Below are positions 2,467-58,866 of a stretch of DNA of 64,000 nt, in pieces. The DNA is from an uncultured Bdellovibrio sp. (GTDB taxonomy: Bacteria > Bdellovibrionota > Bdellovibrionia > Bdellovibrionales > Bdellovibrionaceae). The translations under genes and the position numbers were made by a program. Within the stretch, counting starts at the first letter, position 1, and every line of letters begins with the position of its first letter. Below the pieces are notes generated by a model that was given only the letters and a program-made list of their open reading frames with translations, made no database searches and was not told the DNA's origin. The DNA is taken from contig CAWVRN010000001.1 in assembly GCA_963932905.1 (NCBI GenBank), positions 448,001 through 512,000 of the forward strand. The letters run 5' to 3'.

Positions 2467-5400
2467 CTAGTAAACCAGCACGCGATGAATTCCTCCGTCT
2501 GGGAAAACTTTCACCTTAATCTGCTCTATCGTTTCTTGATTAGAAATTAAAAATTCTTTTTTATTTCCGGCAAATGCTTTTACCGTGGTTCTGGCAGCCA
2601 GTTCAACCCACTGTCCATTTTTCAAGCCCTCTAGGCTGATGGCAGACGGGTTGTTGTTCACGAAATATTTAAAATCTAAAACAACTCTTTTTATCACGGT
2701 CGGTTTACCAAGTTTTAAAACAAGTTCTTCGAAATGACCGGGTTTACGACTGCGGGCGGATTCAAATCCATCGAACATGTGAATCGGAGGAAACGGGGAA
2801 ACAACTTGATCGGCCGGTCCGTAATGTTGGTTGCTGACGCTGACCAGACAACCTCCAAACGCAGCAGAGGCCAGATTGATCGGACGCTTTTTATCCATAA
2901 GTCGTTTTATATTTTTTTCGGTCTCTAGCGCCGAAGCGGCATAAGGAATAGTCAGTGGTTTATGAGATTTTGGAATAACTTCAGTAAACCGGGTAGCGGT
3001 GGCTTCTTCGAAGAGCTTATAATTTTTCGCCTCTTCCGAAGGAAGCTCAGAGTACAAACCTAAACGAGATAATCCCCCATCAGGAAATACATTCACTTTA
3101 ATTTTTGAATACGGTTTTTCGCTGAGAGGACTGGTTTGTTTAATTTTCACGACACCGTGGCCAACTAGATTCTTCTTTGGGAGTATCAAATCCCAGTTTT
3201 TTGCCGCTTCATCGTAGCCGTATAACTCAATCGCTTCGACTTGATTTCCATCATGGTATTTGGTGGAAACTTGAATGTAACGAATAGGTCCCGCCTTCTT
3301 CATTTCAAATTCAAGTGTGTGACGATCGCTGGGATTGTGGCGTACGGATTCCCAACTATCCATCACTTTACCCTGAGCACAAAACAACTGCGGATCAAAG
3401 ATGGGCTGAAACGAACTGAATAGGTTATCAGCTTGAGCAAATCGTTCATCCGTAACTGAGATTACTTTTGCACCCACTGCCAAATTGTATTGTGCTAATG
3501 GATCTACGGGTCCTGTTTCAACAATGGGATCTGGACGACACGGAATGAAGGCATCAAAAATAAGGGCTTTATAGCCTCGATTCACAATTTGTTCTTGCGA
3601 GAATTTTTTGGGATCAAATTCAGTGTGGAATTTATCAAAGGAAATTCCGCTCAGATTCAATGTTCTAATCAATTCTTGTGCAACTTCAGCGATAAACGGT
3701 ACGGCACCGTTGTCGCCGTTAGCAAAAATAACAAAACCCAATCCTTGATCAGGTCCCGCATAGCAATGCATGAACAAGGCGCGGAAACCTTCGTTGGCAC
3801 CTTGATGAATGACGATTTTGTTTTCGCCGGCTTCGGCAATAAATATTCCTAGACCCATGAGGGCCCCCATGAATTCAAAACTGCCTTTGTCACGACCATG
3901 CAGCATCAAAGCGGCCGTATCGTGTGAAATAGAACCGGAGCCTTCAAGATTCTGATACGCACGAGTCAAATGGACCAAGAATTGGGCCATATCAGCAGAA
4001 GAACCCAATCCACCTGCCGCAAACGCGGGAAATTGCAATCGGGTGCCTGGTACTTCTTTCTGCCCATCAAAATAGCCGCATGCATAGTTTTTGCCCGGAA
4101 TATTTTTTAAATTAAACGTTAGGTTTTTAAGCCCCATTTCGGCAAAGAAGGGATATGAAATTTCTTGAATGGTTTTCTTTGTGATGGATTCAATTAAATG
4201 TTCTAGAACCAAAAATCCACCGCCAGAGTAACTGAATTTCTTGCCGGGCTCGTTAATCACTTTTACATCTTTGAGCAGATCTTGCCACACTGGCATTGGT
4301 TTTCCTAGCGGATGTCCTTGAACATAGTGACCACTTAATGCCGTGTGATTTAAAAGGTGCTCCAATTGAACCGCATCAGTGCTGAGCCTAAATGAAGAAC
4401 CTGCTTTTGCAAGCAATGCATTTACGGAAGAATCTAAAGCGATATTATTTTTTTTGAAAAACTCTAAACAGTAGGCCGCGGCCAAAGGTTTACTTAATGA
4501 AGCGATTTCAAACATCGTATCGGCTTGCACATGACCTTCGCCTTTACGACGCTCACCAAAGCTTAATGTCTGAGTCGAATCAAACGCGTTAATAGAAACG
4601 CTAGCACCTACGATCTTGTATTTTTCTAATAAATCCGAAATTTTATTTCGCACGTGATCTAGAGGGTGTTCGATCATACGTTTGCGAGTGATTTCCCACA
4701 ATGCCTCCCGAGCGGCACCGATTTCATCTTGAAATGATCTCTGTAGGCGCATTTTAAGAGCATTCAAAATTTCATCTGCTGATTTATCCTTAGCCGAAAT
4801 TAAAAATTTAAATCCAAATTTCTTTAGATATTCGCTGCCTAGATTTAAAAGTTCTTGGCGTTTGGTTTCGTCTCCAGCTAAGACTTTTTGCTGTTCGGAT
4901 GCGGCTTGTGAATCCAAGGTTTTTTTGGCTTCGCCTATATTTCCATGAAAATAAGCGGCGTCGATGATGTCTTGTTTCGAAAAGGATAATATAATTGTTT
5001 TTGCGTGCTTTGTGTTTAAAACAAAACCCTGAGCCATGGTTTTCGCAAATGCCAGCGATCCACAATGCTCGAAATAATAATTTAAACGCTCGATATAGGC
5101 ATCTAGCTTGAATCGTCCCGGCATCAATTCTTGTGCTGTCGTCCAGGGGTTCTGTGAATCGCGGATTGATTTAATAGTAAAAGGCAAAAGTAACTCGGTT
5201 GCAAATTCGGGCGGCTTAGGATCTGTCATTAATTGCAGCATGAGTTTCATTGCGATCGGGTACCAACGGGCTGTTTCGGCCGTGTATTTTACCTGAACGA
5301 TCTTATCTGGATTCGATAGGTCTTTGCGTATGAAGTGCATTTCTTCGTGAACAATTTTAATAAATTCAGCTTTATCAAATCGGCCATGGTAAAGTTCATG

Positions 5401-7128
5401 CCATACTTCCCAGCGGGAACGTTCAGCGGTCGCCAAATCATCCATCACTCGAACGGAAACTCCATTTACGTGCGCCGGCAGGGCCACACAGCCATTGCCG
5501 CTTAACCAATCTGTAAGGTACTGCAAGGATTGAAACACGTTGTAGCGAATTTCATCCGGGTGATTGTTAGCAATAAAATCAGATTCTTTGATGTCGGCCA
5601 CGATCAACGAACGAACATAATTTTCATCGTTTTCTGATAGTCCTTCAATGTCAGCGCCGTGAATGAAATCCAAAATTTGTTTGTGATACTTGGGTTGCAG
5701 CAGCGACGTCACTAGTTCATCAAGTCCAGCACTGTTGCCAGCGCTATGTTGGCGCCATGCTTCGACCAGCGCTAAACCCAAGCGCACAAAATCAGGATGC
5801 GCGACCCAGAATCCTGATAGATCGCGTTTCATTTGTGTAACGACGTCTTTTATGAAGCCAAGTAAGGTCATTTGAAATGAAGGGGACTGCGGATCCGTAT
5901 CGAGTGGCAAAATACCATACATGCCGCCGACTTTGATTCCGCCTCGCCCGCCAACTACTTTGGCAAGCAGGTGATGTGAGGCTTTGATGTATTTAATGAC
6001 GATGTTAGGGTCCGCTTTGACCGGAATTCTGTAGTGTGAGTCTTCTTTGAAAATTCGTGCTGTGGAAGCCAAGAAATCATGCCAGCCCAGGGAAGCGCCG
6101 ACAAAGTAAGGGTGAAGTGCGTCCATAATTTCGTTCACACGTAAGATGGCGCGGGGATTTTCAAGAACAATCATTAGACGAACAGTACCTAACTGATAAC
6201 TAGGGAATTGCTGTTTTATTTTGCTTTCTGCCGTTGAAATCATTTTCGCCAGGTAAGCCGCTTCTTCTTCATTTTCCAGTTTGGGTACATAAAAGCACAG
6301 TGATTCTGGACGATTCCAATTTTTATACAAGTGCAAAGCGAAATCATACAGGTGCAACGGAATAGGATTTCTATCTTGAAATAAAAATGTACATGGCAAT
6401 GCTAAACCAGGAAAACGTTTAATCGGCAAAGCCAAGTGACCTTTTTCTAGTTCGTAATTCTTTTCATCGCCGCTGACTTTTAGAGTGCCGTCAAAACACG
6501 CCGTCAAATTAACGGCCGCATCAATCAGATCGGCCCGCATTGGTGTTTTAGAATCTTCGTCATCGGCGCCCCATTTAGGATTGAACTTTTGAGTTTTCAA
6601 TAACTCTTCGACAATTTTGGGCTCGTTTTTTATTTTACGATGATAGGAATTCATAGCGTTGATAGCTAATTTCGCGCTATCCGGAGGGCCAAACAGAGTT
6701 ACGTGAGGTCCTTGCAGATACGGCGGGATTGCAGCCACCTGAGCACCCTTGGGGCCGAGGTAATGTTTGTCTTTTGCCCCAAGAACAATGCGACCTTGAT
6801 GATCCTCTAAACCAATAATTGTTTTATAATCACTGTCGGTAATTTCACGTTCAAGCGATGTATTAAAATCCGAGCACGCTTTTACCCGTTCATCGATAAA
6901 TTTTCTATCGATGCGACGCTGCTGAAGAACCTTTTTTAAATCGTCTTTTGTTTCTAGGTACAAATCAGAAAGAAATTTCAAGGCGGACGGAGTTTCTAAT
7001 CCTCCGCCTTCGCCGACTTCCACCATTCCATTTACGGATTTAATTGCCGTCGCATTTTTTAATAAATGATCCGCTAGAGGAGCTGGGATGTAGTCGTGGT
7101 AATATTCGATTTCAAAAAAGGATTTCAT
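2467..7128 (-). CDS. Four-domain fusion: malate synthase + OHCU decarboxylase + beta-lactamase-family serine hydrolase + allantoicase (~1553 aa)
   Basis: One uninterrupted ORF; likely start is ATG 7128, 4 nt after the uraH stop (track start 7161). Malate synthase: ADDEDS, YVPKLE, VLEN, GWHD, WVAHP, MDDLATAE. OHCU decarboxylase: HGNIG..SEQ..YxxKFGFKF. Serine hydrolase: FEIASLSK, YSGGG, HQG. Allantoicase: two repeats, DSWES..FPDGGLSR and DGFES..FPDGGIHR. Confidence 0.88.
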   Translation of the reverse strand: MKSFFEIEYYHDYIPAPLADHLLKNATAIKSVNGMVEVGEGGGLETPSALKFLSDLYLETKDDLKKVLQQRRIDRKFIDERVKACSDFNTSLEREITDSDYKTIIGLEDHQGRIVLGAKDKHYLGPKGAQVAAIPPYLQGPHVTLFGPPDSAKLAINAMNSYHRKIKNEPKIVEELLKTQKFNPKWGADDEDSKTPMRADLIDAAVNLTACFDGTLKVSGDEKNYELEKGHLALPIKRFPGLALPCTFLFQDRNPIPLHLYDFALHLYKNWNRPESLCFYVPKLENEEEAAYLAKMISTAESKIKQQFPSYQLGTVRLMIVLENPRAILRVNEIMDALHPYFVGASLGWHDFLASTARIFKEDSHYRIPVKADPNIVIKYIKASHHLLAKVVGGRGGIKVGGMYGILPLDTDPQSPSFQMTLLGFIKDVVTQMKRDLSGFWVAHPDFVRLGLALVEAWRQHSAGNSAGLDELVTSLLQPKYHKQILDFIHGADIEGLSENDENYVRSLIVADIKESDFIANNHPDEIRYNVFQSLQYLTDWLSGNGCVALPAHVNGVSVRVMDDLATAERSRWEVWHELYHGRFDKAEFIKIVHEEMHFIRKDLSNPDKIVQVKYTAETARWYPIAMKLMLQLMTDPKPPEFATELLLPFTIKSIRDSQNPWTTAQELMPGRFKLDAYIERLNYYFEHCGSLAFAKTMAQGFVLNTKHAKTIILSFSKQDIIDAAYFHGNIGEAKKTLDSQAASEQQKVLAGDETKRQELLNLGSEYLKKFGFKFLISAKDKSADEILNALKMRLQRSFQDEIGAAREALWEITRKRMIEHPLDHVRNKISDLLEKYKIVGASVSINAFDSTQTLSFGERRKGEGHVQADTMFEIASLSKPLAAAYCLEFFKKNNIALDSSVNALLAKAGSSFRLSTDAVQLEHLLNHTALSGHYVQGHPLGKPMPVWQDLLKDVKVINEPGKKFSYSGGGFLVLEHLIESITKKTIQEISYPFFAEMGLKNLTFNLKNIPGKNYACGYFDGQKEVPGTRLQFPAFAAGGLGSSADMAQFLVHLTRAYQNLEGSGSISHDTAALMLHGRDKGSFEFMGALMGLGIFIAEAGENKIVIHQGANEGFRALFMHCYAGPDQGLGFVIFANGDNGAVPFIAEVAQELIRTLNLSGISFDKFHTEFDPKKFSQEQIVNRGYKALIFDAFIPCRPDPIVETGPVDPLAQYNLAVGAKVISVTDERFAQADNLFSSFQPIFDPQLFCAQGKVMDSWESVRHNPSDRHTLEFEMKKAGPIRYIQVSTKYHDGNQVEAIELYGYDEAAKNWDLILPKKNLVGHGVVKIKQTSPLSEKPYSKIKVNVFPDGGLSRLGLYSELPSEEAKNYKLFEEATATRFTEVIPKSHKPLTIPYAASALETEKNIKRLMDKKRPINLASAAFGGCLVSVSNQHYGPADQVVSPFPPIHMFDGFESARSRKPGHFEELVLKLGKPTVIKRVVLDFKYFVNNNPSAISLEGLKNGQWVELAARTTVKAFAGNKKEFLISNQETIEQIKVKVFPDGGIHRVLVY

Positions 7129-7132
7129 AGTA

Positions 7133-7456
7133 CTAGCTGCCTCGGTAGGTGCTGTAACCATATGGGCTTAACAATAAAGGCACGTGGTATTTTCTGTTTG
7201 TGTCTGTGATATTGAACGCAACGGGTACAGCTAAAAAAAACGGAGTTAGATTTTGCTTCTTAAAGTAGTTTTCAATTTCAAAAGTTAAACGGTATTGCGC
7301 GATTTCATAGGGGCAATCAAAATTGATTCGTCCATCACTATTAGTTTTATCTTGTTTTACTTGTGACCACTGATTTCCATTTAATTTTTCTAACGTCACA
7401 GTGACATCTTTAGCTGGCATGCCCAAATTGATGTCCAAAATATGAGTACTAATCAT
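7133..7456 (-). CDS. uraH: 5-hydroxyisourate hydrolase (transthyretin-like)
   Basis: ISTHILD N-terminus, TNSDGR, and YHVPLLLSPYGYSTYRGS C-terminus. Start reassigned to ATG 7456, just after the xdhC stop. Confidence 0.95.
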   Translation of the reverse strand: MISTHILDINLGMPAKDVTVTLEKLNGNQWSQVKQDKTNSDGRINFDCPYEIAQYRLTFEIENYFKKQNLTPFFLAVPVAFNITDTNRKYHVPLLLSPYGYSTYRGS

Positions 7457-46827: not shown

Positions 46828-47295
46828 ATGGAGAAGGTGGATCTTAAATTAAAAAACGATCCCTTTGACGTTAAATCGTTGGTCCGCCCTCTATCTTTGT
46901 TCTTTTTTTTTTCGTTGATGAACGAAACTAAATCGATTCATTACACGATCAAAACCATCGAAAAGTTGAAAAAATTAAAGCCTGGAACTGACATCGGTAA
47001 AATGATGATCAAAATTGCGTCCGATCTTTTAACTAAAAGTAACAACACTGAAGTGTACATTACAAAAAATGTGGGCGAGTTTTGGATTCTTCCAATGGAT
47101 TTAGAATTAGGTCCTTGGAAAGAATTCCATAAAAAAATTTCTAAGAAAGAATTGGTGTCATTGTTGTGGGGGCTTGTAATCAAAGTTCCCGAAGACGATA
47201 TCACAGACGCTTTAGGTATCAGTCAAGGAACTCATAGATATAGGATTTCAAGCGCACTGAAACAGTTAGGTTCGAACACATTTTTATTAAAATAG
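46828..47295 (+). CDS. Degenerate ECF-sigma-like protein (region-4 HTH only)
   Basis: C-terminal EDDITDALGISQGTHRYRISSALKQL resembles ECF region 4.2; region 2 is not recognisable. Confidence 0.55.
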   Translation: MEKVDLKLKNDPFDVKSLVRPLSLFFFFSLMNETKSIHYTIKTIEKLKKLKPGTDIGKMMIKIASDLLTKSNNTEVYITKNVGEFWILPMDLELGPWKEFHKKISKKELVSLLWGLVIKVPEDDITDALGISQGTHRYRISSALKQLGSNTFLLK

Positions 47296-47311
47296 TAAAC
47301 AGGGGCCGTAA

Positions 47312-48343
47312 GTGGAGTTTATAAAACTTAAAAAGAATAAAAGCCGAGAGATGAGTGACTTTGTCGCGAATCATCTTCTTTTTGAGTACGCCCGCAATAC
47401 ATTGGATTCGGAGAGAAAAAAATCGGTTGAGAAGGCGTTAGAATCGGCACCGGAATTACAAAATGAATTTATTAAATTAATTAATGGTATTCAGTATTGT
47501 GAAAAATTAAGTGAAACATTAATAAACGATGCCGCTGTTAAACAGATTGAACTTCAGTCGTCGCAAGTGAACTTTATTGTCAATCGTTTGCGTTGGCATC
47601 AATGGCCGCTGGGATTTAGATGGTTGGTTGAAGCTGGTGTCGTAGCCTTGCTTTTAGTGATTGTCCTGAATGTGCTTCCACTAAACAGACTTATTCATTT
47701 AAACGACGGTTCTGACAGTCAAACGATCGTGGCTGAAGTAAACCGTAAAAAGAAACCGGATTTAGGCGAAACTCCAGAAGCCAATGTTGAGAAACCGGAT
47801 TTCACGGATGAAGAAGTTAAGCAGCCAACGACAGTAGCCGCAAAAGATAAAACTCAGTCAGTCAAAACTAACGACCCTAAATTGGTAACACCATCGGTGG
47901 AAACGAAACCGGTCGCAGTCAAGCAACCAGAGCCACCGCCTGTTGCTATTCCAAAACCGATGACCCAACCAGTGGCCGCAGTGAGCTCTCCAGAGACAGA
48001 AAAACCGGCAAAATCTACGGGCTGGATTTATCGTGGACAGTTCCTAGTAACAAATGCTGAGGCCGTTTCGCCAAAAATTAAAGACAAAATTAAAGAACTC
48101 GGTGGACAAAAAGCCGGGGAAGTTGAAATTGGTTGGTTGAAAACGCCGAATGTATATTATTTCCATTTTACCGTTCCCGAGGCTAAGTTGGGCGAACTGG
48201 AAGCACTACTTAAAGATTACTCGACAGGAAAGATCGTAAAAGAAGCGCATCCCAGGGTAATGCCAGATGGAATTATTCGTATGCTTTTCACGGTTGAAGA
48301 GAAAGCGGCTGACGCCAAGGCTGCGGCCCCTGAAGACAAGTAA
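47312..48343 (+). CDS. Anti-sigma-like membrane protein
   Basis: N-terminal LLFEYARNTLDSERKKSVEKAL (anti-sigma-like, no HxxxCxxC); one TM helix; Pro-rich linker; small C-terminal alpha/beta domain. Confidence 0.55.
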   Translation: MEFIKLKKNKSREMSDFVANHLLFEYARNTLDSERKKSVEKALESAPELQNEFIKLINGIQYCEKLSETLINDAAVKQIELQSSQVNFIVNRLRWHQWPLGFRWLVEAGVVALLLVIVLNVLPLNRLIHLNDGSDSQTIVAEVNRKKKPDLGETPEANVEKPDFTDEEVKQPTTVAAKDKTQSVKTNDPKLVTPSVETKPVAVKQPEPPPVAIPKPMTQPVAAVSSPETEKPAKSTGWIYRGQFLVTNAEAVSPKIKDKIKELGGQKAGEVEIGWLKTPNVYYFHFTVPEAKLGELEALLKDYSTGKIVKEAHPRVMPDGIIRMLFTVEEKAADAKAAAPEDK

Positions 48344-48379
48344 CTAGAAAACAAATAACTATTTAAGGTTTTTCATCGG

Positions 48380-50320
48380 ATGAGAAAAATAGTTTTAAAG
48401 CGTAAAAAATCGAAACGCTCGATCAGAACCATTATTATTTCATGGTTTTTGTTGCTTTCATTATTACCTTTAATTTTCGTGGCTTATTATTCAACCGTAA
48501 AATACGAACAAGCGATCGATAAAGAATTATTACAACGACTTTCTGTCAATTCACGCGAAATCGAAGTTATCCTAGCTGACTTTAAGTCGGGTCTACAAGT
48601 TCGTCGTGATCGTTATCTAAAAGATCCTTATTTGATTTACAACCTTTCTATAAGCGATCGTCAAACTCTGAACCAGCTTGGCTCTGAATATATTATGCAG
48701 GAGTTTTCTTCAGAACTTATTTTTTTCAATCGCGAAGCTCGACAGGTAGCGAAAGTGATTAAAAACGACAAGAATGAAGTTATCTCGGTTTCTAGCCGCG
48801 ACGAAGCCACGTTCTTGTCGGACAAATATATTTCTGTTTTAAAAACTAGCAAAGATATACCAATCCTTGAATATGATAGGGATCGAATTTTACTGACGCT
48901 GTTGTCGCGTGTAAATAATCAAAGTAAAAAAACAATCGGATATATTCAGCAAAAAATTTATCTAGATAGTGCATTCATTTCACGTCTAAAAAATAGATTG
49001 AAATTGGAATTTGTTCTAGGCAAAGAAGACAGCACAATCATTTTGGCCAGTTTCAAAGCCGCTCAAGCATCGAACATTTTTAGCCGTATTCAATCGGTTG
49101 CTTATTCTAAAGATCCCATTGTTGAAGTTCCCATTAAAAATACTCCCTATGGTTTCTACGTTTCGTTTATGGAATGGGGACATTCACGATTTCTATTGTC
49201 ATTAGGGGTTTCAAAATCAGATTCGCGTGAGGTTCTAAAAAATATCAATTTGGCTTATTTCAGCGTCGTTGGTGTCGTTATCATATTTCTAATTATTACC
49301 GTTATTATTACTAGTAAATGGATTTTGGCGCCGTTAAATAACCTGGTGGATGCACTTCATTCATTTGAAACTCAGGAACAAGCTGTCACCATTCCCGTAA
49401 AAAATGATACAGAAATTGGTTTGCTGACCGAAAGTTTCAATCAGATGAGTATCAACATCTCGCAAGCTAGGAATGATCTAAAGAAAAAGGTGCAGGAATT
49501 AGAAGCCGCCAATCGTGAGCTGAAGGAAACTCAAAAAAAGCTTGTTCATTCAGCCAAGATGATTTCCCTCGGCGAGCTTGTGGCGGGTGTAGCCCATGAA
49601 TTGAATAATCCCATCAGTTTCATTTACAGTAATATGAGTTATTTGCGCGACTATTCATCAAAATTAATTGACCTGGTTCGCTTGGCCAGCGCGGAACCGG
49701 CCGCTTTGGAAAAGAAAAAATCCGAAGTCGAATTTGACTATATTGTGAAAGATTTACCGAAGTTAATTTCGTCTTGTGAAGAAGGTGCTCGACGGACTCG
49801 TGATATCGTTCTTGGCCTAAGAAATTTTTCTCGGATTGACGAATCTCAAATTAAGGAAGTGGATATCCGCGAAACAATCGACACTACATTAAATTTACTT
49901 CAGGGCGAGATAAAAAATCGTATTGAAATTAAAAAAGACTATGAGCCGATTCCGATGATTAAATGTTTTGCGAGTCAGTTAAGCCAAGTTTTTGTAAATT
50001 TGCTTTCGAATGCTATTCAAGCCATTTCCGGAAATGGTACCATTTGGATTCACGTCAATTTAATAAAAGGTAAAGAAAATTGGGTACAGATATCGATCCA
50101 AGATAGTGGTAGCGGTATTTCATCAGAGAACTTAGATAAGATTTTTGATCCTTTCTTCACGACTAAAGGTGTGGGGCAAGGTACTGGTTTGGGCTTAAGT
50201 ATTACTTATGGAATTATTCAAAAGCACGGTGGTGATATTCAAGTTAAATCACAGCTAGATGTCGGTACAGAGTTTATTATACAGCTTCCGATAGAGCCTA
50301 AACTCAGTAAACAGTCCTAA
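48380..50320 (+). CDS. HAMP-domain sensor histidine kinase
   Basis: Two TM helices flanking a periplasmic domain; HAMP ([12 protein letters not shown]), [14 protein letters not shown] and GQGTGLGL. Confidence 0.93.
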
Positions 50321-50341: not shown

Positions 50342-50368
50342 TTAATTTTTCAATAGGGTAACCGATCT
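50342..50368 (+). promoter_or_regulatory. Possible sigma28-like promoter of the motAB-like operon
   Basis: TTAA-N15-ACCGATCT, 7 nt before ATG 50376; no RBS. Confidence 0.4.
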
Positions 50369-50375
50369 TCTATGT

Positions 50376-51332
50376 ATGAATTTATCGTCGCTACTTGGCA
50401 CGGCCATCATTAGTTTCGTTTTGTTTTTCGGCGTCCTAAAAGGGTCGAAGAATCCTGAAATATTTTTGAATGCCCACGCGTTAATGTTGGTGCTGGGTGG
50501 TACACTGGGCGTAACACTGCTTGCATTTCCCTTTAGAAAATTGAAAGAGATGCTAGATTTCCTGATCTACGGCCTATTCTTCAAAAAGAAAACTGAAGAT
50601 TTATTTGTTGTGGCTGACTTAATTCGGATTGCCGAAGAATACCGAAAGGACCCACATGGATTTATCAATAACTATTCTGTGGCGAATCCGTTTCTAAAGG
50701 AAGCTCTTAAGTTATTATCTAAAAATGCACTTTCTTATGAAGATTTACTATTGATCGTTAAAAACCGTCGTGATTCGTTCAAAAAACGCTACCAAGAAGA
50801 TCATAAAATGTTGCTGTCTATTTCCAAATTCCCGCCGGGATTGGGACTACTTGGTGCTTCGTCCGGTATGATCGAGATGATGATTGGTCTAAATTCCTCA
50901 GGTATGGATGGTATCGGTAATGCTATGGCCGTCGCGCTCGTTGCTACGTTCTGGGGTATCGCGATTGCGAACTTTGTATTTTTGCCACTTGCCGACTATG
51001 CCGCTCGAGTTGCGTCGGAAGATTTTTTCACTCGTAGCTTAGTTGTTCATGGTATTTCACTTATCAAGCAGGGGATGGCTCCGAAAATTATTGCAGAAAC
51101 GCTGATCAGTCAGTTACCTATCAGAGATCAAGTATATTTAAGAAATATTTTCTTTAAATCGGCGGTGGTTGGATCAGGTTTGGCAAGCTATACGGCTCCG
51201 CCAAGTTCAGGTACTGGTGCTAAATCAGAAATTTCTGTAATCACACCGATGGCGCCGACTATTGGTGGCAAAAAAACAGATCAGGACAAAACAAACGTAT
51301 TAGAGTTTCCAAAAACTGGCTCCGAGGAATAG
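50376..51332 (+). CDS. MotA/PomA-family ion-channel subunit
   Basis: VLGGT, PPGLGLLG and MAVALVATFWGIAIANFVFLPLA TM motifs; extra low-complexity C-terminal tail. Confidence 0.88.
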   Translation: MNLSSLLGTAIISFVLFFGVLKGSKNPEIFLNAHALMLVLGGTLGVTLLAFPFRKLKEMLDFLIYGLFFKKKTEDLFVVADLIRIAEEYRKDPHGFINNYSVANPFLKEALKLLSKNALSYEDLLLIVKNRRDSFKKRYQEDHKMLLSISKFPPGLGLLGASSGMIEMMIGLNSSGMDGIGNAMAVALVATFWGIAIANFVFLPLADYAARVASEDFFTRSLVVHGISLIKQGMAPKIIAETLISQLPIRDQVYLRNIFFKSAVVGSGLASYTAPPSSGTGAKSEISVITPMAPTIGGKKTDQDKTNVLEFPKTGSEE

Positions 51333-51335
51333 TTT

Positions 51336-52484
51336 ATGTCGGAACCGCGTAAGGACGAAGATTTTTACTCAGACAACGAACATGAGGAAAATCATATCGA
51401 TGAAAAATGGCTAATTAGTTATTCCGATATGATGACGCTGCTGTTTGGTTTCTTCGTTATGATGTACGTACTTTCTACGTCCAACAAAGCAAAAATGGAA
51501 GAAGCTCTTCAGCAAATTTCCAAAGAAGGTTTTAATACCGAAAAAGTAGTACAAAAAGCAGATGATCCTAAGCCTGTAACTACCAATATGGAAAAAACGG
51601 CTCCAGCGGCCGATGACATTCTTATTGAACTTAAGAAAAAAGAAGAAAAAAAGAAAAAGGAAATGGAAGACAGCCTGATTCAAGCCAAGGCAGAAGTTGC
51701 GAAAAACGAAGAAGAACTAAAGCAAGCATTAGAAAAAATCAAAAAATTAGAAGAAAGCCAAGCGACTGTTTCAATCGATAAAACAGATCAAGAAAAGAAA
51801 TTAAAAGAATACGAAGAAAAAATGAAGTTGCTAGAGAAAGCGGCTTTAGAAAAAGACGAAGAGTTGAAAAAAATTGCAATTGAGAAAGACGAAGAAATCA
51901 AACGACTTTCAGCGGCAAGCAGTGCCCAACAAAAGGATGCTAGTAAAGCCAAAGATGATGCTGACTTGTTAAAAAAATTGAAAAAGAACCTGATCGAATT
52001 AGAGAGTAATTTAAAATTAGCTGATGTGAAATCAAAAGAGTTGGCTAAAGAAAACGCAATGCTTAAGCAAAAAATTGATGATACGCCAAAAATTAAGGAC
52101 GATGATCATTTTATGATGGTTTTCGTTCGCTGGGAAACAGAGAAGCATGATATCGATATGATTATCGAGGATCCCAAGGGTAACATATTTAACTATAAAA
52201 AAAGAACCTTAGCAAACGTGCCAGGCGAGTTTGTCGTTGATAGTACACAAGGTCCAGGAGTTGAATCTTGGGTAACAAATAAAACTATCGAAGGCACATA
52301 CAAAGTTACGTTTAAATTCTATAACCAGTACGGTAATAAAAAAGATGCTGTAATTAAACCTTCAATTTTTAACAATTTAAAGGTAGAAAAATTACCAGAT
52401 ATAACGCTTAATTTTTCACAGAAGAAAGAAAAAACAGTACTGATTAAAGTTGCGAAAGATGGCCAGTTTACGGTAGTTCAATGA
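51336..52484 (+). CDS. MotB-like protein: MotB TM + coiled coil + YfaP/DUF2135-like domain, no OmpA domain
   Basis: WLISYSDMMTLLFGFFVMMY with Asp31; E/K-rich coiled coil; C-terminal W..DIDM..DPKG..DSTQGPGVE..GTYKV..FY. Confidence 0.8.
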   Translation: MSEPRKDEDFYSDNEHEENHIDEKWLISYSDMMTLLFGFFVMMYVLSTSNKAKMEEALQQISKEGFNTEKVVQKADDPKPVTTNMEKTAPAADDILIELKKKEEKKKKEMEDSLIQAKAEVAKNEEELKQALEKIKKLEESQATVSIDKTDQEKKLKEYEEKMKLLEKAALEKDEELKKIAIEKDEEIKRLSAASSAQQKDASKAKDDADLLKKLKKNLIELESNLKLADVKSKELAKENAMLKQKIDDTPKIKDDDHFMMVFVRWETEKHDIDMIIEDPKGNIFNYKKRTLANVPGEFVVDSTQGPGVESWVTNKTIEGTYKVTFKFYNQYGNKKDAVIKPSIFNNLKVEKLPDITLNFSQKKEKTVLIKVAKDGQFTVVQ

Positions 52485-53788
52485 TTTCTAAAATCCACCA
52501 CATCTTCCTGATTCTATTTCTACTTCCAGCATTTTGTTATGCGGGCGTTGAAGTGTTTGAAAAAAAAGGAACTGGTGATGACTGGGTCAAATCCACATTT
52601 CCAAATAAAATATCGTTGACGTTTATGCCAATCGCTTCAAAACCGGGACGACGATTAACTTATAAAGGGACTATTACTTTTCCTAAAGATTTGGCTTCGG
52701 CTGAACAAGGCAGTGAAACTACGTCGGTTACCGTTGAAAGAAATGTACTTTATGTTCAGGTTTTATCTTTCGAAGAAAGAATCAAAATTAAATATGCTGA
52801 CAAATCAGAAACAGAAATTAAATTGGTTACGACCGAACCTCGGTTTCGATTATATAGCGAAAAATGTAAAGAATTGCTGATCAATGTTCGCGTTGCACCT
52901 GTTGTGAAAACCGCAGTTATTCCACCATTTGCAATGGGCATCAGCTGCGACAAATATGAAGATAAACTCATCATGGTAGTGTCCATACCCGCGGACATCG
53001 AACCCGGTGAAGGTTCACTGGTCGAGGGTGGCGGCAAAGGTGAATCGTGGAAGTTTTATGAATTGCCTTCGACAGCACGTGATGATGGTGTCATCGGCGG
53101 GATTAAGTACAGGGTTAAGAACGTTGACGTGGCACTGTCGCTGCAAAATTTTCGACTAAAGAAAAAAGAAGAAGAGACAAAAAAAGAATTGGTCAGCAAA
53201 GATCCAAGTTATTTTCAAGATATGCATTTTGGAATCGGAACTAAGAGCTTGGCGTTCACAGCGGGTGAAATTAGTTCATCGACAAGTGGAATTTCGCTGG
53301 AAGCTGGAATTTTATCAAAGCCAATTTGGAAACAGTTTCAACTCGGTGTCTCTTATACAACCGCTTTAGTTTCCAATGACGAAAATAGTATTTCGTTCTC
53401 TGATTTTTCTGGAATCTTAGGCTATTCAATTCCATTTAAAAAATCTAAACTCATGCCATTTGGTTTTGCGAAGCTTGTTGATTTCTTACATAAATCTACG
53501 CAAACGCGATTGCAAGCGACTTTGGCCGGTGTTGGAGTTGATTATAGGTATGAACTTGCACGTGGTCAGATTTCACTCAATTTAGAGATGGGCATTTTTG
53601 CTGCTAAAGGAATATCATCACAGATGCGCTACGAGCTAGGCTACCAGTACTATATAAAAGAAAAATCGAAATTGGGTTTAGGTATTTATTACGATAATCA
53701 AGATTTCAAAGCCGTCAACACAGCAGGTGAAGGGCGTACTTTTAAAGAGGGAAATATCTTGTTGAAAGTCGTTCTGAACAGCCTCTAG
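52481..53788 (+). CDS. Exported beta-rich protein with a probable C-terminal outer-membrane beta-barrel
   Basis: Signal peptide; ATGA overlap with the motB-like gene; alternating amphipathic strands (GVGVDYRY, YELGYQYY, LGLGIYY). Confidence 0.6.
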   Translation: MISKIHHIFLILFLLPAFCYAGVEVFEKKGTGDDWVKSTFPNKISLTFMPIASKPGRRLTYKGTITFPKDLASAEQGSETTSVTVERNVLYVQVLSFEERIKIKYADKSETEIKLVTTEPRFRLYSEKCKELLINVRVAPVVKTAVIPPFAMGISCDKYEDKLIMVVSIPADIEPGEGSLVEGGGKGESWKFYELPSTARDDGVIGGIKYRVKNVDVALSLQNFRLKKKEEETKKELVSKDPSYFQDMHFGIGTKSLAFTAGEISSSTSGISLEAGILSKPIWKQFQLGVSYTTALVSNDENSISFSDFSGILGYSIPFKKSKLMPFGFAKLVDFLHKSTQTRLQATLAGVGVDYRYELARGQISLNLEMGIFAAKGISSQMRYELGYQYYIKEKSKLGLGIYYDNQDFKAVNTAGEGRTFKEGNILLKVVLNSL

Positions 53789-53886: not shown

Positions 53887-54516
53887 ATGAAGACTCAAAA
53901 GCCGAAGAAAAACGACAATTTTGCTGCCTACTTACTAGGTTTGTTTTTCCTAGCTTCGTCGGCGTTGTTCGGCGTATTTGTAATTTCTGACGACCATGGT
54001 ACTGTCGCAGGACAAACAGAAGGCCAGAGTGATTTTTCGTCGACTCGCAATATCACTGAACTTGATAAGGTAAATGATCATCTGAAGAGTGTTGCTGATA
54101 AAATGGAATATGAACGTTTGAAAACATTGGTTGCTAATTTGAAGGCTAGTCGCGATACGGGACCGTCGACTCCCATTGTTCAGAACAACGATGATCAGCC
54201 CATTGTTGAATTAGAGAATGATTTACGTGAAAAGCAAATGGCTCAACAATTAGGTCGAACGAATGAAATAAAACGCCCCGCCACTGATCCGCGATCATTG
54301 GTGTACAATTCGGTAATTGAAGATCGTCAGTTGGCTAAAGCCAAAGAGGAAGAACGTATACGCCAAGCTAAGGAATTCGTGGCAAAAGCCCGTAAAGAAG
54401 GTTGGATAGTTAATTTAGATTCAGACTTTAAAATCAAATCTTATCGTCACGTAGATGATATGCCGGACCAGAATCCTGAAAAGGATTATCGTGGTTTCCC
54501 GGTCGTTCCCAAGTAA
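53887..54516 (+). CDS. Hypothetical membrane-anchored protein
   Basis: GAGGTG RBS; one N-terminal TM helix; helical body. Confidence 0.7.
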   Translation: MKTQKPKKNDNFAAYLLGLFFLASSALFGVFVISDDHGTVAGQTEGQSDFSSTRNITELDKVNDHLKSVADKMEYERLKTLVANLKASRDTGPSTPIVQNNDDQPIVELENDLREKQMAQQLGRTNEIKRPATDPRSLVYNSVIEDRQLAKAKEEERIRQAKEFVAKARKEGWIVNLDSDFKIKSYRHVDDMPDQNPEKDYRGFPVVPK

Positions 54517-54677
54517 TCCAAGACTTAAATCTGACGTTTTGAAACACTTAATTTTGATTTAAATCAAATGTTGCTTATTTGCACCTATTCTTGCCGTTTT
54601 TCTTAGTCGTTGAGTCATCCAGCCCCAGTTGTCTTCATAAAATAAAAAGCATAGAATTTCGTACATAGGAGCAAAAT

Positions 54678-55271
54678 ATGAAAATGAGTATTCTATTTTT
54701 ATTAGCGCTATCATTATTTATCACAAATTGTGGACCTAAGGCGTTCGTAAAAGGTCAGTACGATGATGTTCAAAGAGAAAATCTACTGAACGATCAATGG
54801 TCCGAAACTGACATGCAAAATGCAGTGAAAGATTTAGTTGCTAGTTTAGTTAGTCATCCCTCAATCGCAAATGCGAAAACACCCCCAGTGGTGATGGTGA
54901 CTCAGCTACAAAATAAAACAAGCGAGCACATTGATACGCAAAGTATTATGGATATGTTCCGGGTCGAGTTAATGAATTCAGGCAAAGTAGAATTTATCGA
55001 TAAAGAAGCTCGTCAAGATATCAAAGATGAATATGACTACCAAAATTCTGGCGTAGTTTCTGAGGAATCTAAAAAGGGACCTGGCGGCCAAATCGGTGCT
55101 GATTTTATTGTTAATGGTCGTATGGATTCGATCGTTCAAGAAGTAGGCAAAGATAAAACTGTTTATTACAAAATGACGATGAATTTGACGAACCTAAAAA
55201 CATCTAAAATGGTTTGGTCAAACTACAAACAAATGAGAAAACAATTTAAAAAGAAATCTGTTGGTTTATAA
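54678..55271 (+). CDS. lpoB: Penicillin-binding protein activator LpoB-family lipoprotein
   Basis: Lipobox ITNC; NKTSEHID, IGADF..G and YYKMTMNL..W motifs. Confidence 0.85.
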   Translation: MKMSILFLLALSLFITNCGPKAFVKGQYDDVQRENLLNDQWSETDMQNAVKDLVASLVSHPSIANAKTPPVVMVTQLQNKTSEHIDTQSIMDMFRVELMNSGKVEFIDKEARQDIKDEYDYQNSGVVSEESKKGPGGQIGADFIVNGRMDSIVQEVGKDKTVYYKMTMNLTNLKTSKMVWSNYKQMRKQFKKKSVGL

Positions 55272-55302
55272 TTAACAGCTGTTCTAACCGGCAAGCAACT
55301 AT

Positions 55303-56559
55303 ATGAAAAAAATCAAATTCACTTTGAAATCTTCAGCAATAGTTGCTTGCTTGCTATTTACTGCTTGCGCTACTTATCAAAGTAAAGTTTTTAAAAGTCG
55401 ACAACTAGTAGAATCTGGCCAAGTTTCTGAAGCCACCCAACAATTAAAAATATTAGCGGATCAAGAAAGTGACGATCAATTGATTTACACTTTAGATTAT
55501 GCGACTTTGCTGCAGTACTCGGGTGATCTTAAACAAAGTAATAATTATTTTTTCAATGCTTTGAAACTAATAGATAAGTTTGATTATCAGTCTATAAGTC
55601 GCGTGACTGGGTCGTTGTTATTTAACGAAGAAATGGTTCAGTACAAGGGTGATACATTCGAAAAAATCTTCGTAAATGCCTATCTAGCATTGAATTTCTT
55701 GGAACTGAATGATTTGGATGCGGCACTAGTGGAAACTCGTAGAATTAACGAAAAATATCAAAAATATCGTCAGGAAGAAAAAAAGAATTTCGAAATGAAT
55801 TCTTTTGCCACTTACTTGTCAGCCATGATTTGGGAAGCCGATGGAAAATATGATGATGCGTACATCGCCTACAAAGACGCGTATAAAATTGATAGAAATA
55901 TTGGTTTGATTGATGATGATTTAATTCGTACGGCGAAAAAATCGCAGCGAATGGATGACTATAGAAAACTAAAAATGGACTTCCCAAATGTAAAAGAAGA
56001 TCCAAGTTGGTATGATAAATCGATGGGTGAAGTGATAGTGATTTTCCAAAACGGTTGGGGGGCAAGGAAAGATTTTAATCCCCATAGCCCTCGATTTCCG
56101 ATTTTAAGATCGGTTCCCGCGGAAAGTCGAAACGCCAGAATCAGTTTGGATCCAGTCGATAAAACAGGATCGCACTATCTAGGACAAACCGAATTCATAT
56201 ACAGCGTCGATGAAGCGGCGATCAAAACATTACTAGAAGACCAAGGTTCCCTTGCGGCGCGAAGAATAGGCGGAATCGTGGCGAAAGAAGTCGCTGCCGA
56301 TCAGATTCGGCAAAAAAACGAACTCCTAGGTTTCGTAGCGGCCGTTGCCATGCACGCCTCTGATAGAGCGGATCTAAGGCAATGGTCGTTTTTACCAAAA
56401 GAATTCCAAATGGTAAGAATCCGCGTAAAACCGGGTAAATACAAAGTCAGACTGACCACGCAAAATCGTTACAGCGAAACTGCTGGTAACAGCATTCTAG
56501 AGAAAGAAATCGATATCCGCGCAGGAAAAACTCGCTTCATAAATTGGCGTCAATTCTAA
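55303..56559 (+). CDS. COG3014-like TPR lipoprotein
   Basis: Lipobox FTAC; YKGDTFEK..ALNFL..ALVETRR and ADLRQWSFLP; next to lpoB, as is usual for this family. Confidence 0.8.
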   Translation: MKKIKFTLKSSAIVACLLFTACATYQSKVFKSRQLVESGQVSEATQQLKILADQESDDQLIYTLDYATLLQYSGDLKQSNNYFFNALKLIDKFDYQSISRVTGSLLFNEEMVQYKGDTFEKIFVNAYLALNFLELNDLDAALVETRRINEKYQKYRQEEKKNFEMNSFATYLSAMIWEADGKYDDAYIAYKDAYKIDRNIGLIDDDLIRTAKKSQRMDDYRKLKMDFPNVKEDPSWYDKSMGEVIVIFQNGWGARKDFNPHSPRFPILRSVPAESRNARISLDPVDKTGSHYLGQTEFIYSVDEAAIKTLLEDQGSLAARRIGGIVAKEVAADQIRQKNELLGFVAAVAMHASDRADLRQWSFLPKEFQMVRIRVKPGKYKVRLTTQNRYSETAGNSILEKEIDIRAGKTRFINWRQF

Positions 56560-56688
56560 TTGGTCAAAATCTGCGTTCTTTTACAATCACCATAAATTAG
56601 TTTAGGGTGATTCCATTTTAATTCATTAATCAGGACTTTTTTCCAATATTTAGTATCAAAGTCTAATCCAGAAAACTTGAACCCAGAC

Positions 56689-56715
56689 TTAACTATCTGC
56701 TTAATCAGCCGAACT
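56689..56715 (+). promoter_or_regulatory. Sigma28-like promoter
   Basis: TTAA-N15-GCCGAACT. Confidence 0.5.
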
Positions 56716-56753
56716 AATAGCGTATTAGTTTAATTTTTATTTTTGGAGGCCCA

Positions 56754-57986
56754 ATGAATAGCAGCACTAGTTGGCAGCAATGCAAACGAATCATCGCGAT
56801 ACTGATGACAATCACGTTGATCGCTGGTTGCGGAAAAGAAGCGGAAGACGATACCAGCTCGAGCTCTTCTACTTCATCAGGGAATAATCCTACTTTGGGA
56901 GTAGTGCAAGACGACGCTTTTTATGTACGAGTTTTTGACGAAGAGAAGTTTCCTTACTACATGAGTAAGCTGGGCGATTTCAATACGAAATGCGCAATTG
57001 CCTCCGGGTCATCAGCGCAAAATTTGGATTGCGTACTTGATATGAACGAATTAGATCTTTACTTCCATGGTGTTTCGTTTCAGTACAACGTTCCAAGTGG
57101 CATGTGCAGTTACTTTTCGCGATCCACGTACTGGTATTATAACTACGAGGTTGGCTATGGACCTAGTACCTTTGTTCGCAATGAAACTAAAGATGCCAGT
57201 GGTAATTTAGTAAGTAGCTCTTGTGTTATCGACGGTGTAACTCAAGCCGGCTGTTCCAATTCTGAGTCTTCTTATGGAACTGATGGTCCTTCCTGTATTT
57301 ATAACTATACAGCATCTGGTGGTCCAAATTGCTGTATGGGTAGCTACACCAAAACTGTTAACACAACGACTCCGTCAGGCACCACATCGACTTCAGAAGT
57401 TTTAGGTTGGGGTGGTAATTACGCTGGGTGTATTGGTGGCGCCGGTAAAACAAATTGGACTGAACTTGACAAAGTGGGTAAGCCGGTCGGTGTAATTGAA
57501 TATACCCCGTCAACAGGTCTCAACCAAAAATACGATGTCACCGGACCTCAGTTTAAATCGAATACTGGTTTAAACATTCCAATCGCAAATTTTTACACCG
57601 CAAGCAAACACACCCATGGTGCCTATGTCGGCTCTACGACATCGTCCTATCCATATATTGTCGACCCCATCGATGATAGGAGTGGAAGTCCTTTACCATC
57701 AGGTAACCCAGCCTACACGTGGACTTGTTATGACAGAAATCTAGAGATAGTTAATCGAATTCGGGTTTATATTCGTGAATGGAATACCAATAAAGAATTT
57801 GTTAAATACGGAACTACCAGCGGAGCCTCAGGAGATCCAGACATTTCGGGCTTTGAGGGAACCGAATGTGATTATACAAGTTCAATGGGTGGCCGATGTA
57901 ATGACAGGACTGACTTAGACGATAATACTTTTACTAACTACAATTCAACCACGAAACCTTTGTTATTTCCTAACGAAGAATACTAA
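56754..57986 (+). CDS. Cys-rich lipoprotein of unknown function
   Basis: GGAGG RBS; lipobox IAGC; Ser-rich tether; 12 further Cys. Confidence 0.8.
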   Translation: MNSSTSWQQCKRIIAILMTITLIAGCGKEAEDDTSSSSSTSSGNNPTLGVVQDDAFYVRVFDEEKFPYYMSKLGDFNTKCAIASGSSAQNLDCVLDMNELDLYFHGVSFQYNVPSGMCSYFSRSTYWYYNYEVGYGPSTFVRNETKDASGNLVSSSCVIDGVTQAGCSNSESSYGTDGPSCIYNYTASGGPNCCMGSYTKTVNTTTPSGTTSTSEVLGWGGNYAGCIGGAGKTNWTELDKVGKPVGVIEYTPSTGLNQKYDVTGPQFKSNTGLNIPIANFYTASKHTHGAYVGSTTSSYPYIVDPIDDRSGSPLPSGNPAYTWTCYDRNLEIVNRIRVYIREWNTNKEFVKYGTTSGASGDPDISGFEGTECDYTSSMGGRCNDRTDLDDNTFTNYNSTTKPLLFPNEEY

Positions 57987-57989
57987 TTC

Positions 57990-58021
57990 ATAGAATTCTC
58001 TTCGTCCGAAGAGAATTCTAT
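57990..58021. terminator. Long hairpin between convergent genes, probably a bidirectional terminator
   Basis: Perfect 15-bp inverted repeat ATAGAATTCTCTTCG-tc-CGAAGAGAATTCTAT overlapping the cheX-like stop. Confidence 0.7.
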
Positions 58022-58866
58022 TTCGTAACTCCGCTACTCATGCTGATTTCCATATAGAAATCTCCCGCTTCCGATTTGAATGGCAGTATAATCGAACCCT
58101 GATCGTTCAAGTGTGAAACCGACAAATCTTTTGCGCGAACAATGGCGGGAATGGCTTTCTCGAAAGAATGGCCATTTTCATTCAAGACTCTCTTCGCATG
58201 ACCGAAAATCATATTCAGGATTTCGCCGGCGCCATCTTCTAGATCCTTAGTGATTTCTTTGTAATCTTCGCTCAGCATTTTCGACATGATAAAGAGAAAT
58301 ACTTTTGAGGGAAAACAGATCGAGATATTTCCATTGAAGGCTTTGCTTGTGATCCCAATGACTCCTAAAATATCGATCGATGGTAATTTAGTATCTTTGG
58401 TTTTTAATAGTGGTTTATCGATTGTTACCGTCACCTGGCACTGAACATCTAGAGTTTTGATCGCACCTTCGATAAAGGGATTGATGAACGAGACATCGAG
58501 TTTAGATCCGCCACCTCCGGCTTTGGGCGCAGAACCCGCTCTCTGAGGAACTTCCGAGATGGACTCAACCAGTTTTAAAACATTATCCATTCCTTCAGAC
58601 TTAATCAGAGTCGTCGTGGCTTTTAATCCGGTTAGTACATACATTTGAAATTTTGGTTTTTTTTGCGAGAGGGCGAGTTGGGTAAGAACTTTAAAACCCT
58701 TGTAACTGACATGTTGATCGTCAGTATTTAATACGATCGCCTCTAATTTTTCATTTTTTTCCATTTCGCTTTTAACGTCAGCGGCTATGGATTCCGCAAA
58801 TTCTTGCGTTATTTCTTCTACCATGTCGTAAACGATCGACTTTTCATCCTTGTTCTTTGTAAACAT
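58018..58866 (-). CDS. CheX-family phosphatase with an N-terminal STAS-like domain
   Basis: FINPFI, GVIGIT, GEILNMIFG (ExxN) and AIP; N-terminal GFKVLTQL..LIKSEGMDNVL..ESISE. Confidence 0.8.
   Translation of the reverse strand: MFTKNKDEKSIVYDMVEEITQEFAESIAADVKSEMEKNEKLEAIVLNTDDQHVSYKGFKVLTQLALSQKKPKFQMYVLTGLKATTTLIKSEGMDNVLKLVESISEVPQRAGSAPKAGGGGSKLDVSFINPFIEGAIKTLDVQCQVTVTIDKPLLKTKDTKLPSIDILGVIGITSKAFNGNISICFPSKVFLFIMSKMLSEDYKEITKDLEDGAGEILNMIFGHAKRVLNENGHSFEKAIPAIVRAKDLSVSHLNDQGSIILPFKSEAGDFYMEISMSSGVTK

Follow-up and report, generated by a model that had tools for sequence, protein, structure and literature searches.

A flagellar-type stator pair with an exchanged periplasmic anchor and a linked, predicted outer-membrane barrel in Bdellovibrionota: a candidate envelope-spanning energy transducer

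Introduction

The closest described counterparts of the locus reported here are the flagellar stators (MotA5B2 and PomA5B2) and the ion-driven units of GldLM (type IX secretion and gliding), ExbBD-TonB and TolQR-TolA, the latter three of which deliver ion-driven work of the inner membrane to a partner in the outer membrane. In the survey of Puente-Lelievre et al. (2025; PMC12505986), flagellar (FIT) units combine an OmpA-type anchor with a plug, and generic (GIT) units typically lack the latter. The locus is a three-gene operon located at positions 50376-53788 of a 64-kb stretch of DNA from an uncultured Bdellovibrio sp. (assembly GCA_963932905.1, contig CAWVRN010000001.1, positions 448,001 to 512,000; "the window" hereafter), and it encodes a MotA-like protein, a MotB-like protein with an exchanged periplasmic part and a predicted outer-membrane barrel protein. 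With its plug kept and its anchor exchanged, the clade to which this pair belongs straddles this FIT/GIT divide.

The best explanation of the locus, to which a probability of roughly 0.55 is given, is a non-flagellar transducer of energy from the inner to the outer membrane. The exchange of the anchor, together with the co-inheritance of the outer-membrane barrel, probably means that the pair powers some surface process other than swimming. No paper on this architecture was found by title or abstract; the supplements of PMC11323537 (Table S4/S5) and PMC12505986 (homologue list) could contain members.

Organisation of the locus and the MotA-like subunit

Three forward-strand open reading frames (ORFs) constitute the locus, at exactly the positions given by an earlier, sequence-only reading of this DNA (the first-pass annotation): the motA-like gene (50376-51332; 318 amino acids (aa), Pfam MotA_ExbB at 2.4e-15), the motB-like gene (51336-52484; 382 aa) and a third gene for an exported, predicted outer-membrane protein (52481-53788; 435 aa). 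The motA stop codon and the motB ATG are separated by a gap of 3 nucleotides (nt), with GAGGA upstream of the motB start, and the motB TGA overlaps the third-gene ATG as ATGA at 52481-52484, in agreement with the translational coupling of the third gene proposed earlier.

The MotA-like protein is a four-transmembrane (TM) A-subunit with a cytoplasmic domain that can be aligned to solved MotA and PomA chains: in phmmer searches against the PDB, residues 10-254 align to 6ysf (4.2e-23) and residues 1-243 to PomA 8bri (2.2e-18). Nevertheless, the PomA, MotA and MotP models of NCBIfam score it at 63-99 bits against cut-offs of 237-394, the best MotA-type score being 98.9 bits against the PomA cut-off of 341, which places it below the equivalog level. 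The stretch that aligns with the rotor contact of solved stators reads YRKDPHGFINNY (residues 89-100, 50640-50675), where the solved proteins have R-(R/K)-(E/G)-G-(L/F)-L-x-L-E; the Glu position of the rotor-contact Arg/Glu pair, the two residues of which lie eight residues apart, is thus occupied by Asn. Furthermore, an extra C-terminal tail begins at about residue 255 (~51138) and extends 60-70 aa past the end of solved MotAs. Both peculiarities had been pointed out in the first-pass annotation, and both are upheld.

The MotB-like subunit: motor part, stalk and head

The TM helix with Asp31 (codon GAT at 51426-51428) and the plug region (residues 15-62, 51378-51521) match MotB_plug (PF13677) at 1.6e-16, and the TM motif with the essential Asp is accordingly retained, as had been stated. 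An OmpA domain is found neither in Pfam, even at E ≤ 10, nor in NCBIfam, where the MotB/MotD models cover the N-terminal part only and stay below their cut-offs (57.7 bits at best against 283); the claimed absence of an OmpA-like peptidoglycan-binding domain therefore holds. Judged by these alignments, the MotA-like and MotB-like proteins keep the core of a MotA5B2-type ion-driven unit, namely the channel helices, the TM Asp and the plug.

In place of the usual periplasmic part, residues 95-245 (151 residues, 51618-52070) form a charged, heptad-periodic stretch that is predicted to be a coiled coil and corresponds to the ~150-aa coiled coil of the first-pass annotation. It contains no Pro or Gly and consists to 54% of E, K, D, R and Q, and its hydrophobic periodicity at 3.5 residues is 1.97 as against 0.23±0.23 in shuffled sequences (a value reached by 1 of 2000 shuffles). 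The stalk would be about 22 nm long if fully helical.

The C-terminal head (residues 259-382, 52110-52481) was modelled with AlphaFold2 from a 60-row alignment as a confident all-beta sandwich (predicted local distance difference test score (pLDDT) 94.2, predicted TM-score 0.86), the folded part of which begins at about residue 260 and so agrees with the start near 52110 assigned earlier. The model resembles TerD (2qz7: Foldseek E 4.9e-4, TM-score 0.59; superposition Z 10.4 over 122 aa, root-mean-square deviation (rmsd) 3.4; 2kxt: Z 9.1 over 126 aa), followed by the C-terminal jelly rolls of subtilisin-type proteases at Z 6.3-7.3, of which the C-domain of Tk-SP (3afg) comes first (Z 7.3 over 79 aa, rmsd 2.0, 19% identity) and CspA and KP-43 next. 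As modelled, the fold is TerD-like or subtilisin jelly-roll-like, and no sequence match of the head to TerD or subtilisin domains is significant; a W..D(L/I)D(L/M)..DP.G motif is common to the head and Tk-SP, at a non-significant E of 0.25-0.34. Within the family, the head conserves H-D-x-D, D-P-x-G and G-P-G-x-E motifs. Since the model has no helices, the head does not appear to be a disguised OmpA-type peptidoglycan binder, and the refuting condition named in the first-pass annotation, a divergent peptidoglycan-binding fold of the C-domain, is not borne out by the all-beta prediction. The stator-like pair with a swapped anchor thus stands as first described, on the MotA alignment, the plug with Asp31, the lack of OmpA and the predicted all-beta head.

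The label that the head had been given earlier, YfaP/DUF2135-like (PF09906), could not be confirmed. The Pfam model gives no match at E ≤ 10 (and none at E ≤ 0.001 in the 62 relatives described below), so that of the expected Pfam picture the presence of MotB_plug and the lack of OmpA stood, and DUF2135 did not. A scan of the genome with PF09906 leads to a different gene, on contig C18, and hhalign comparison of the head with seven DUF2135 proteins of the genus yields a non-significant E of 0.38, with the same motifs aligned in the same register. Only a language-model similarity search (ESM Atlas; top cluster score 0.91, 198 shared features, DUF2135 on 21% of its members) points to that family. 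Separately, a giant surface-type protein of 3676 aa (P0088, with Big_3, Bact_surface_Ig-like and DUF285 repeats) matches residues 65-116 of the head query in 15 stretches.

The third protein

The model of the third protein (pLDDT 85.9) comprises a signal helix, two beta-sandwiches, a disordered linker and a barrel. A signal peptide is predicted at residues 1-21 (52481-52543); the two modelled beta-sandwich domains, presumed periplasmic, occupy residues 23-117 and 123-223 (52547-53149), and a 10-stranded barrel takes up residues 245-433 (53213-53779). The barrel superposes on pOmpT (Z 20.8 over 186 aa), OpcA (Z 19.9; Foldseek E 8e-6) and the Legionella Dot/Icm porin I (Z 18.6). No Pfam family is assigned to the protein, Porin_4 and OMP_b-brl being weak matches at 0.013-0.016, and a search of PDB sequences with its profile returned no match at E ≤ 10. 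Among 25 homologues, C129, C156 and a G185-K186 motif are invariant, a G-K-G-E motif and the Cys pair are conserved in the family, and the paralogues of the protein end in Y or F. The third gene is therefore predicted to encode an outer-membrane beta-barrel protein, as the first-pass annotation had anticipated with its exported, beta-rich outer-membrane protein.

Distribution and single origin of the variant stators

An exhaustive search with the MotB head retrieved 453 representative clusters at E ≤ 1e-3 and 220 at E ≤ 1e-10, and in nearly all matches the head forms the C-terminus of a protein of 300-450 aa. Among 62 matches scanned for domains, 43 carry MotB_plug and none carries OmpA or DUF2135; most of the 19 plug-less matches are short fragments. 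Two sets of loci were assembled. The first, found with a 14-row alignment of the C-domain, consists of 18 loci on named contigs, 17 of which belong to Bdellovibrionota; the second comes from an even selection of 301 genomes of the phylum, covering 169 genera, in which 19 genomes from 17 genera have a head match. A genus represented by 18 sampled genomes yielded a single weak match, to a protein other than MotB. The variant-MotB family is thus confined almost wholly to Bdellovibrionota. The sole named contig from elsewhere (L073, 6.5 kb, titled as a metagenome-assembled genome of Candidatus Competibacterales) has a match of 31% identity, which could reflect a binning error or gene transfer. A contig labelled Bacteriovorax stolpii, a culturable organism, is among the carriers. 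The 13 sequencing runs listed for the sequence are DNA-type metagenomes, mostly from groundwater, with no RNA run among them.

The origin of the family was traced in a tree of 50 MotA sequences of the phylum, 29 encoded beside a variant MotB and 21 beside an OmpA-type MotB. In this quick search without bootstraps, all 29 variant-partnered MotAs form one clade (Shimodaira-Hasegawa-like approximate likelihood ratio test 99) that is nested among the OmpA-partnered PomA-type stators, and the swapped-anchor stators are accordingly read, from the sequence tree, as having a single origin from flagellar-type stators. The rotor contact also differs in the clade: the rotor-contact Glu is found in 90% of the 21 OmpA-partnered MotAs, in which the helix with the Arg and Glu is well conserved, whereas the 29 clade members have no conserved residue in the rotor-contact columns and a deletion of 2-4 aa, and carry a clade-specific H-PF(L)xE motif conserved just after these columns. 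By this alignment, the conserved Glu of the rotor contact has been lost in the variant MotA clade.

The nearest OmpA-partnered relatives of the clade reside in non-flagellar operons, of the compositions vWA-TPR-MotAB and FliG_M/FliG_C fusion-cNMP-binding-MotAB. The former is seen at two loci of the same genus (L104, G001:C98; L105, G004:C17), where a giant protein of 1632 or 2117 aa, vWA and TPR proteins, MotA, an OmpA-type MotB of ~350 aa and two further ORFs make up an operon that may represent another non-flagellar stator system. The latter is seen at L116 (G237:C11), which also encodes a cNMP-binding protein; here and in several other places, FliG_M/FliG_C proteins of 590-850 aa are encoded beside their own MotA and OmpA-type MotB.

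Partner genes and the wider module

The third gene follows motB directly in six genomes of the same genus, and it lies within 10 kb of the variant locus in 12 of the 18 named-contig loci and 12 of the 18 phylum-sample loci (the two sets share three loci, leaving 33 distinct loci of 36). In G007, which belongs to the same genus, each of the three variant motAB loci comes with a third gene. Of the 301 genomes, 14 encode a third protein matched over its full length (E < 1e-50), and every one of these carries the variant MotB, while the sampled genomes without the variant MotB gave only three weak, barrel-only matches, none of full length; as the carrier genomes are kin, this co-occurrence is not an independent statistical test. 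The conservation of the three genes, which the first-pass annotation had proposed as a check, is therefore largely confirmed, with three carriers lacking the third gene that are considered below.

At many loci, the wider module includes genes for a lipoprotein of ~1150 aa with an S8 (subtilisin) domain and for two large lipoproteins, p804 and p905. This set is found in 6 of the 18 named-contig loci and 5 of the 18 phylum-sample loci. The S8 domain is matched in Pfam at 7.6e-45 with intact D/H/S motifs, the nearest NCBIfam models being mycosin and dentilisin PrtP (both below cut-off), while the search of PDB sequences gave no match for p804 and a chance-level match only for p905. In two genomes (G120 and G021), the third gene is unlinked from motAB and yet adjoins the S8-p804-p905 genes, which suggests that the family comprises a pair of inner-membrane proteins and a set at the outer membrane; the window locus is the short, three-gene form of the module.

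A different set of neighbours was observed at L086 (G190:C1:2846100-2866000). A 2281-aa fibre protein with Bdello_MAT_N (mosaic adhesive trimer, 7.7e-43) and Peptidase_S74 domains is encoded directly upstream of the variant motA-motB. Downstream of the pair come genes for proteins of 633, 611 and 1178 aa, the largest containing an NHL repeat, and then for two paralogues of the barrel protein.

Genomic surroundings

Upstream of the operon, between mreB and motA (46828-50320), the window has a HAMP histidine kinase gene and two ORFs that no Pfam family matches; one of these encodes 155 aa, the other 343 aa with a Pro-rich stretch and a TM segment. From mreB to motA, the six closest loci (L056-L061) preserve this gene order. 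Downstream (53887-57986), a gene for a membrane-anchored protein of 209 aa is followed by three lipoprotein genes, whose products are an LpoB-family member (5.7e-42), a protein of 418 aa and a Cys-rich protein of 410 aa; the order of the first three genes of this set is preserved in the closest loci. With mreB on its upstream side and lpoB on its downstream side, the locus is thus part of a conserved core synteny. Outside the operon, the sole chemotaxis- or motility-related family in the window is a CheX phosphatase-domain protein of 282 aa (58018-58866, reverse strand, 4.7e-20).

At some distance, on the reverse strand (2467-7161), a single open frame of 1564 aa combines malate-synthase, OHCU-decarboxylase, beta-lactamase-fold and allantoicase domains and adjoins transthyretin/HIUase, XdhC and xanthine-dehydrogenase genes of a purine-breakdown cluster; it is either an unusual fusion or an over-long ORF call. 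Elsewhere in this genome, a second, weak FliG_C-like gene (C8:31103-31966, reverse strand; 287 aa, 38.9 bits), distinct from the canonical fliG on C2, is followed by a gene for a 334-aa exported protein, with no motAB adjoining.

Proposed function and competing explanations

As a non-flagellar inner-to-outer-membrane transducer, the system could operate as follows. The coiled-coil stalk of the MotB dimer would span the periplasm, and its heads would engage the barrel protein at its periplasmic domains. Until then the plug would block the channel, as in flagellar stators, and docking would release it; ion flow would then turn or pull the stalk against the MotA ring in a GldLM- or TonB/TolA-like manner, and the moving stalk would deliver work to an outer-membrane complex that, in the fuller modules, may include the S8 lipoprotein and the two large lipoproteins. 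Possible outputs are the deployment of a surface protease, the movement of an adhesin or work on the envelope during predation. A more specific proposal can be offered only tentatively: a further transducer of proton-motive force to the outer membrane beside Ton, Tol and GldLM, derived from a stator, whose MotB shaft rotates or pulls, whose TerD-like heads engage the barrel and which energises a surface subtilisin-lipoprotein complex in the attack phase. If the transducer reading is true, a torque generator has been re-tooled into an envelope-spanning energy transducer, and predatory bacteria possess a powered surface machine that had not been recognised before.

Several observations weigh against this reading. 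The length of the linker in the family ranges from 81 to 399 aa (median 185, from the 43 of 59 aligned rows in which the TM motif can be recognised), which is hard to reconcile with a single fixed periplasmic span. Three carriers, G129 and G315 (one genus, high quality) and G240 (89% complete), possess the variant MotB with no detectable third protein, and candidate divergent analogues of the third gene beside motB in G021 and G129 show no relationship to it (hhalign E 0.54 and 0.34). R90 of the MotA-like protein is retained. All 18 tested carriers are flagellated, as judged by FliM, so that no flagellum-free carrier proves independence from the flagellum. A paralogue of the pair in the same genome (on another contig, C19:6498-19820; L054, L002), with a MotB that is 36% identical and of the same architecture, lies in a seven-gene module (two third-gene paralogues, a 1166-aa S8 lipoprotein, 804-aa and glycine-rich 905-aa lipoproteins, motB and motA, the last two on the opposite strand from the others) that is inserted between flgF-G-A-H-I with a rod-binding (flgJ-like) gene and fliL-M-N-O-P.

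Finally, a promoter-like element of the sigma-28 (FliA) type, TTAA-N15-ACCGATCT (50342-50368, forward strand), ends 8 nt before the motA ATG and predicts a nearly leaderless motA transcript, and the variant operon has this type of promoter in common with the canonical motAB of the same genome (TCAA-N15-GCCGATTA). Its CCGAT core and T(T/C/A)AA box recur in 6 of 6 orthologous loci, in which the intergenic sequence farther upstream varies. Across the family, the motif occurs upstream of motA in 8 of 27 loci, mostly 8-9 nt from the ATG, as against 0.7% of random 123-nt windows; the C19 paralogue in the flagellar cluster has none, and the strict motif occurs 48 times in the genome where ~11 are expected. 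According to PMC3627812, the FliA-type consensus of the Bdellovibrio attack phase is TTAAG-N16-CCGATA, and in B. bacteriovorus it heads 92 of 140 attack-phase promoters, many of them of non-flagellar genes. The motif consequently argues for attack-phase expression and not specifically for a flagellar role; at the level of sequence, it suggests that the operon is expressed in the motile attack phase.

The alternative that survives best is an accessory flagellar stator, in which a scaffold at the outer membrane (formed by the third protein, possibly as a ring close to the basal body of the sheathed flagellum) would keep MotB in place while the MotA ring would still turn FliG. Protein scaffolds for stators, such as MotX/MotY and PflA/PflB, are known, and the retained R90, the FliM of all tested carriers, the flagellar position of the C19 module and the shared type of promoter all fit such a role, as does the descent of the clade from PomA-type stators with retention of the plug, which is a flagellar trait in the FIT/GIT scheme of PMC12505986. 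We nevertheless consider this explanation unlikely. The rotor-contact Glu and its helix, conserved in the 21 OmpA-partnered MotAs, are not conserved in the 29 clade members. The flagellar neighbourhood of the C19 module does not recur: G007, of the same genus, has the same seven-gene module with no flagellar match on either side, and flagellar queries found nothing at its 3 loci or at any of the 33 distinct loci in other genomes. A family scan detected no flagellar structural families in the rest of the window. The earlier remark that no flagellar genes are nearby hence holds for the window and for the other genomes, and fails for the same-genome paralogue. The other conserved members of the module are an S8 peptidase and large lipoproteins rather than flagellar parts, and no FliG_C gene is found near a variant locus in any of the 18 carriers, though extra FliG_C genes exist in them. 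At least one further MotB_plug gene is present in all tested carriers but one (G057, with one match only), and the variant pair is thus taken to be always additional to ordinary stators. Three motAB pairs of Bdellovibrio were reportedly described by Morehouse et al. in 2011.

A Tol-Pal-like envelope tether or force sensor (sensing, for example, strain at prey entry), without dedicated cargo or surface output, is also distinctly improbable, even though an inner-membrane motor with a periplasm-spanning stalk and an outer-membrane partner would suit it, the three-gene operon of the window has no cargo-like gene and a histidine kinase gene stands directly upstream in the six closest loci. The persistent linkage of the third gene to the S8 peptidase with its intact D/H/S motifs and to the two large lipoproteins points instead to a surface output, and the patchy occurrence in 19 of 301 genomes is unlike that of a housekeeping envelope system. 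A Zorya-like anti-phage defence motor, as had been suggested among the possible roles in the first-pass annotation and as would fit the use that Zorya, too, makes of a MotAB-type unit for something other than motility, is hardly credible because PADLOC, run on six proteins, finds no match for MotA, MotB or the third protein (two chance-level matches fell on neighbouring genes), the module has no nuclease or effector gene, the MotA lacks a long ZorA-type tail, the MotB lacks a peptidoglycan-binding domain and the locus belongs to the conserved mreB-lpoB synteny.

Comparison with known systems

With the flagellar stators MotA5B2 and PomA5B2, the variant pair shares the alignment of its MotA to the solved chains, the TM Asp and plug, the adjacent and coupled genes and the nested position in the tree. 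It differs from them in having a stalk and, as modelled, a TerD-like head instead of an OmpA-type anchor, in the lack of the rotor-contact Glu across the clade, in NCBIfam scores far below the equivalog cut-offs and in its linkage, in other genomes, to an outer-membrane barrel and lipoproteins rather than to flagellar genes. The variant is thus a flagellar-type stator by descent and in its core parts, yet it departs from one in the defining features. Modules of the L116 type with FliG_M/FliG_C proteins are similar in placing a flagellar-type stator in a non-flagellar operon, and the L116 MotA is among the nearest relatives of the clade; unlike the variant, which has a swapped anchor and no FliG_C nearby, they retain an OmpA-type MotB and a FliG-like partner.

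GldLM, ExbBD-TonB and TolQR-TolA offer a functional analogy, in that an ion-driven inner-membrane unit with a periplasm-spanning part would likewise work on an outer-membrane partner. The variant does not belong to these systems by sequence, since Pfam gives only MotA_ExbB and MotB_plug, and its periplasmic reach is provided by a coiled coil within the MotB-type subunit, in contrast to a separate TonB or TolA or to the domains of the GldM type. Moreover, it has a plug, which according to PMC12505986 is typically absent from non-flagellar relatives.

As for the individual parts, the modelled head has its fold in common with TerD (2qz7 and 2kxt, whose entry title mentions calcium binding as a feature of TerD) and with the jelly rolls of subtilisins (Tk-SP 3afg, KP-43 1wmd and CspA/CspC), with no significant sequence relationship to either, and a TerD-like fold at the tip of a MotB stalk, if the model holds, is a new context. 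The modelled 10-strand barrel of the third protein is akin to those of OpcA, the omptins OmpT and Pla and the Legionella Dot/Icm porin I (Z 18.6-20.8 over 183-186 aa); unlike these, the third protein adds two N-terminal periplasmic beta-sandwiches, has short loops and matches no sequence family. The variant therefore joins flagellar-type descent and a plug with an exchanged wall anchor, a lost rotor Glu and a co-inherited, predicted outer-membrane barrel.

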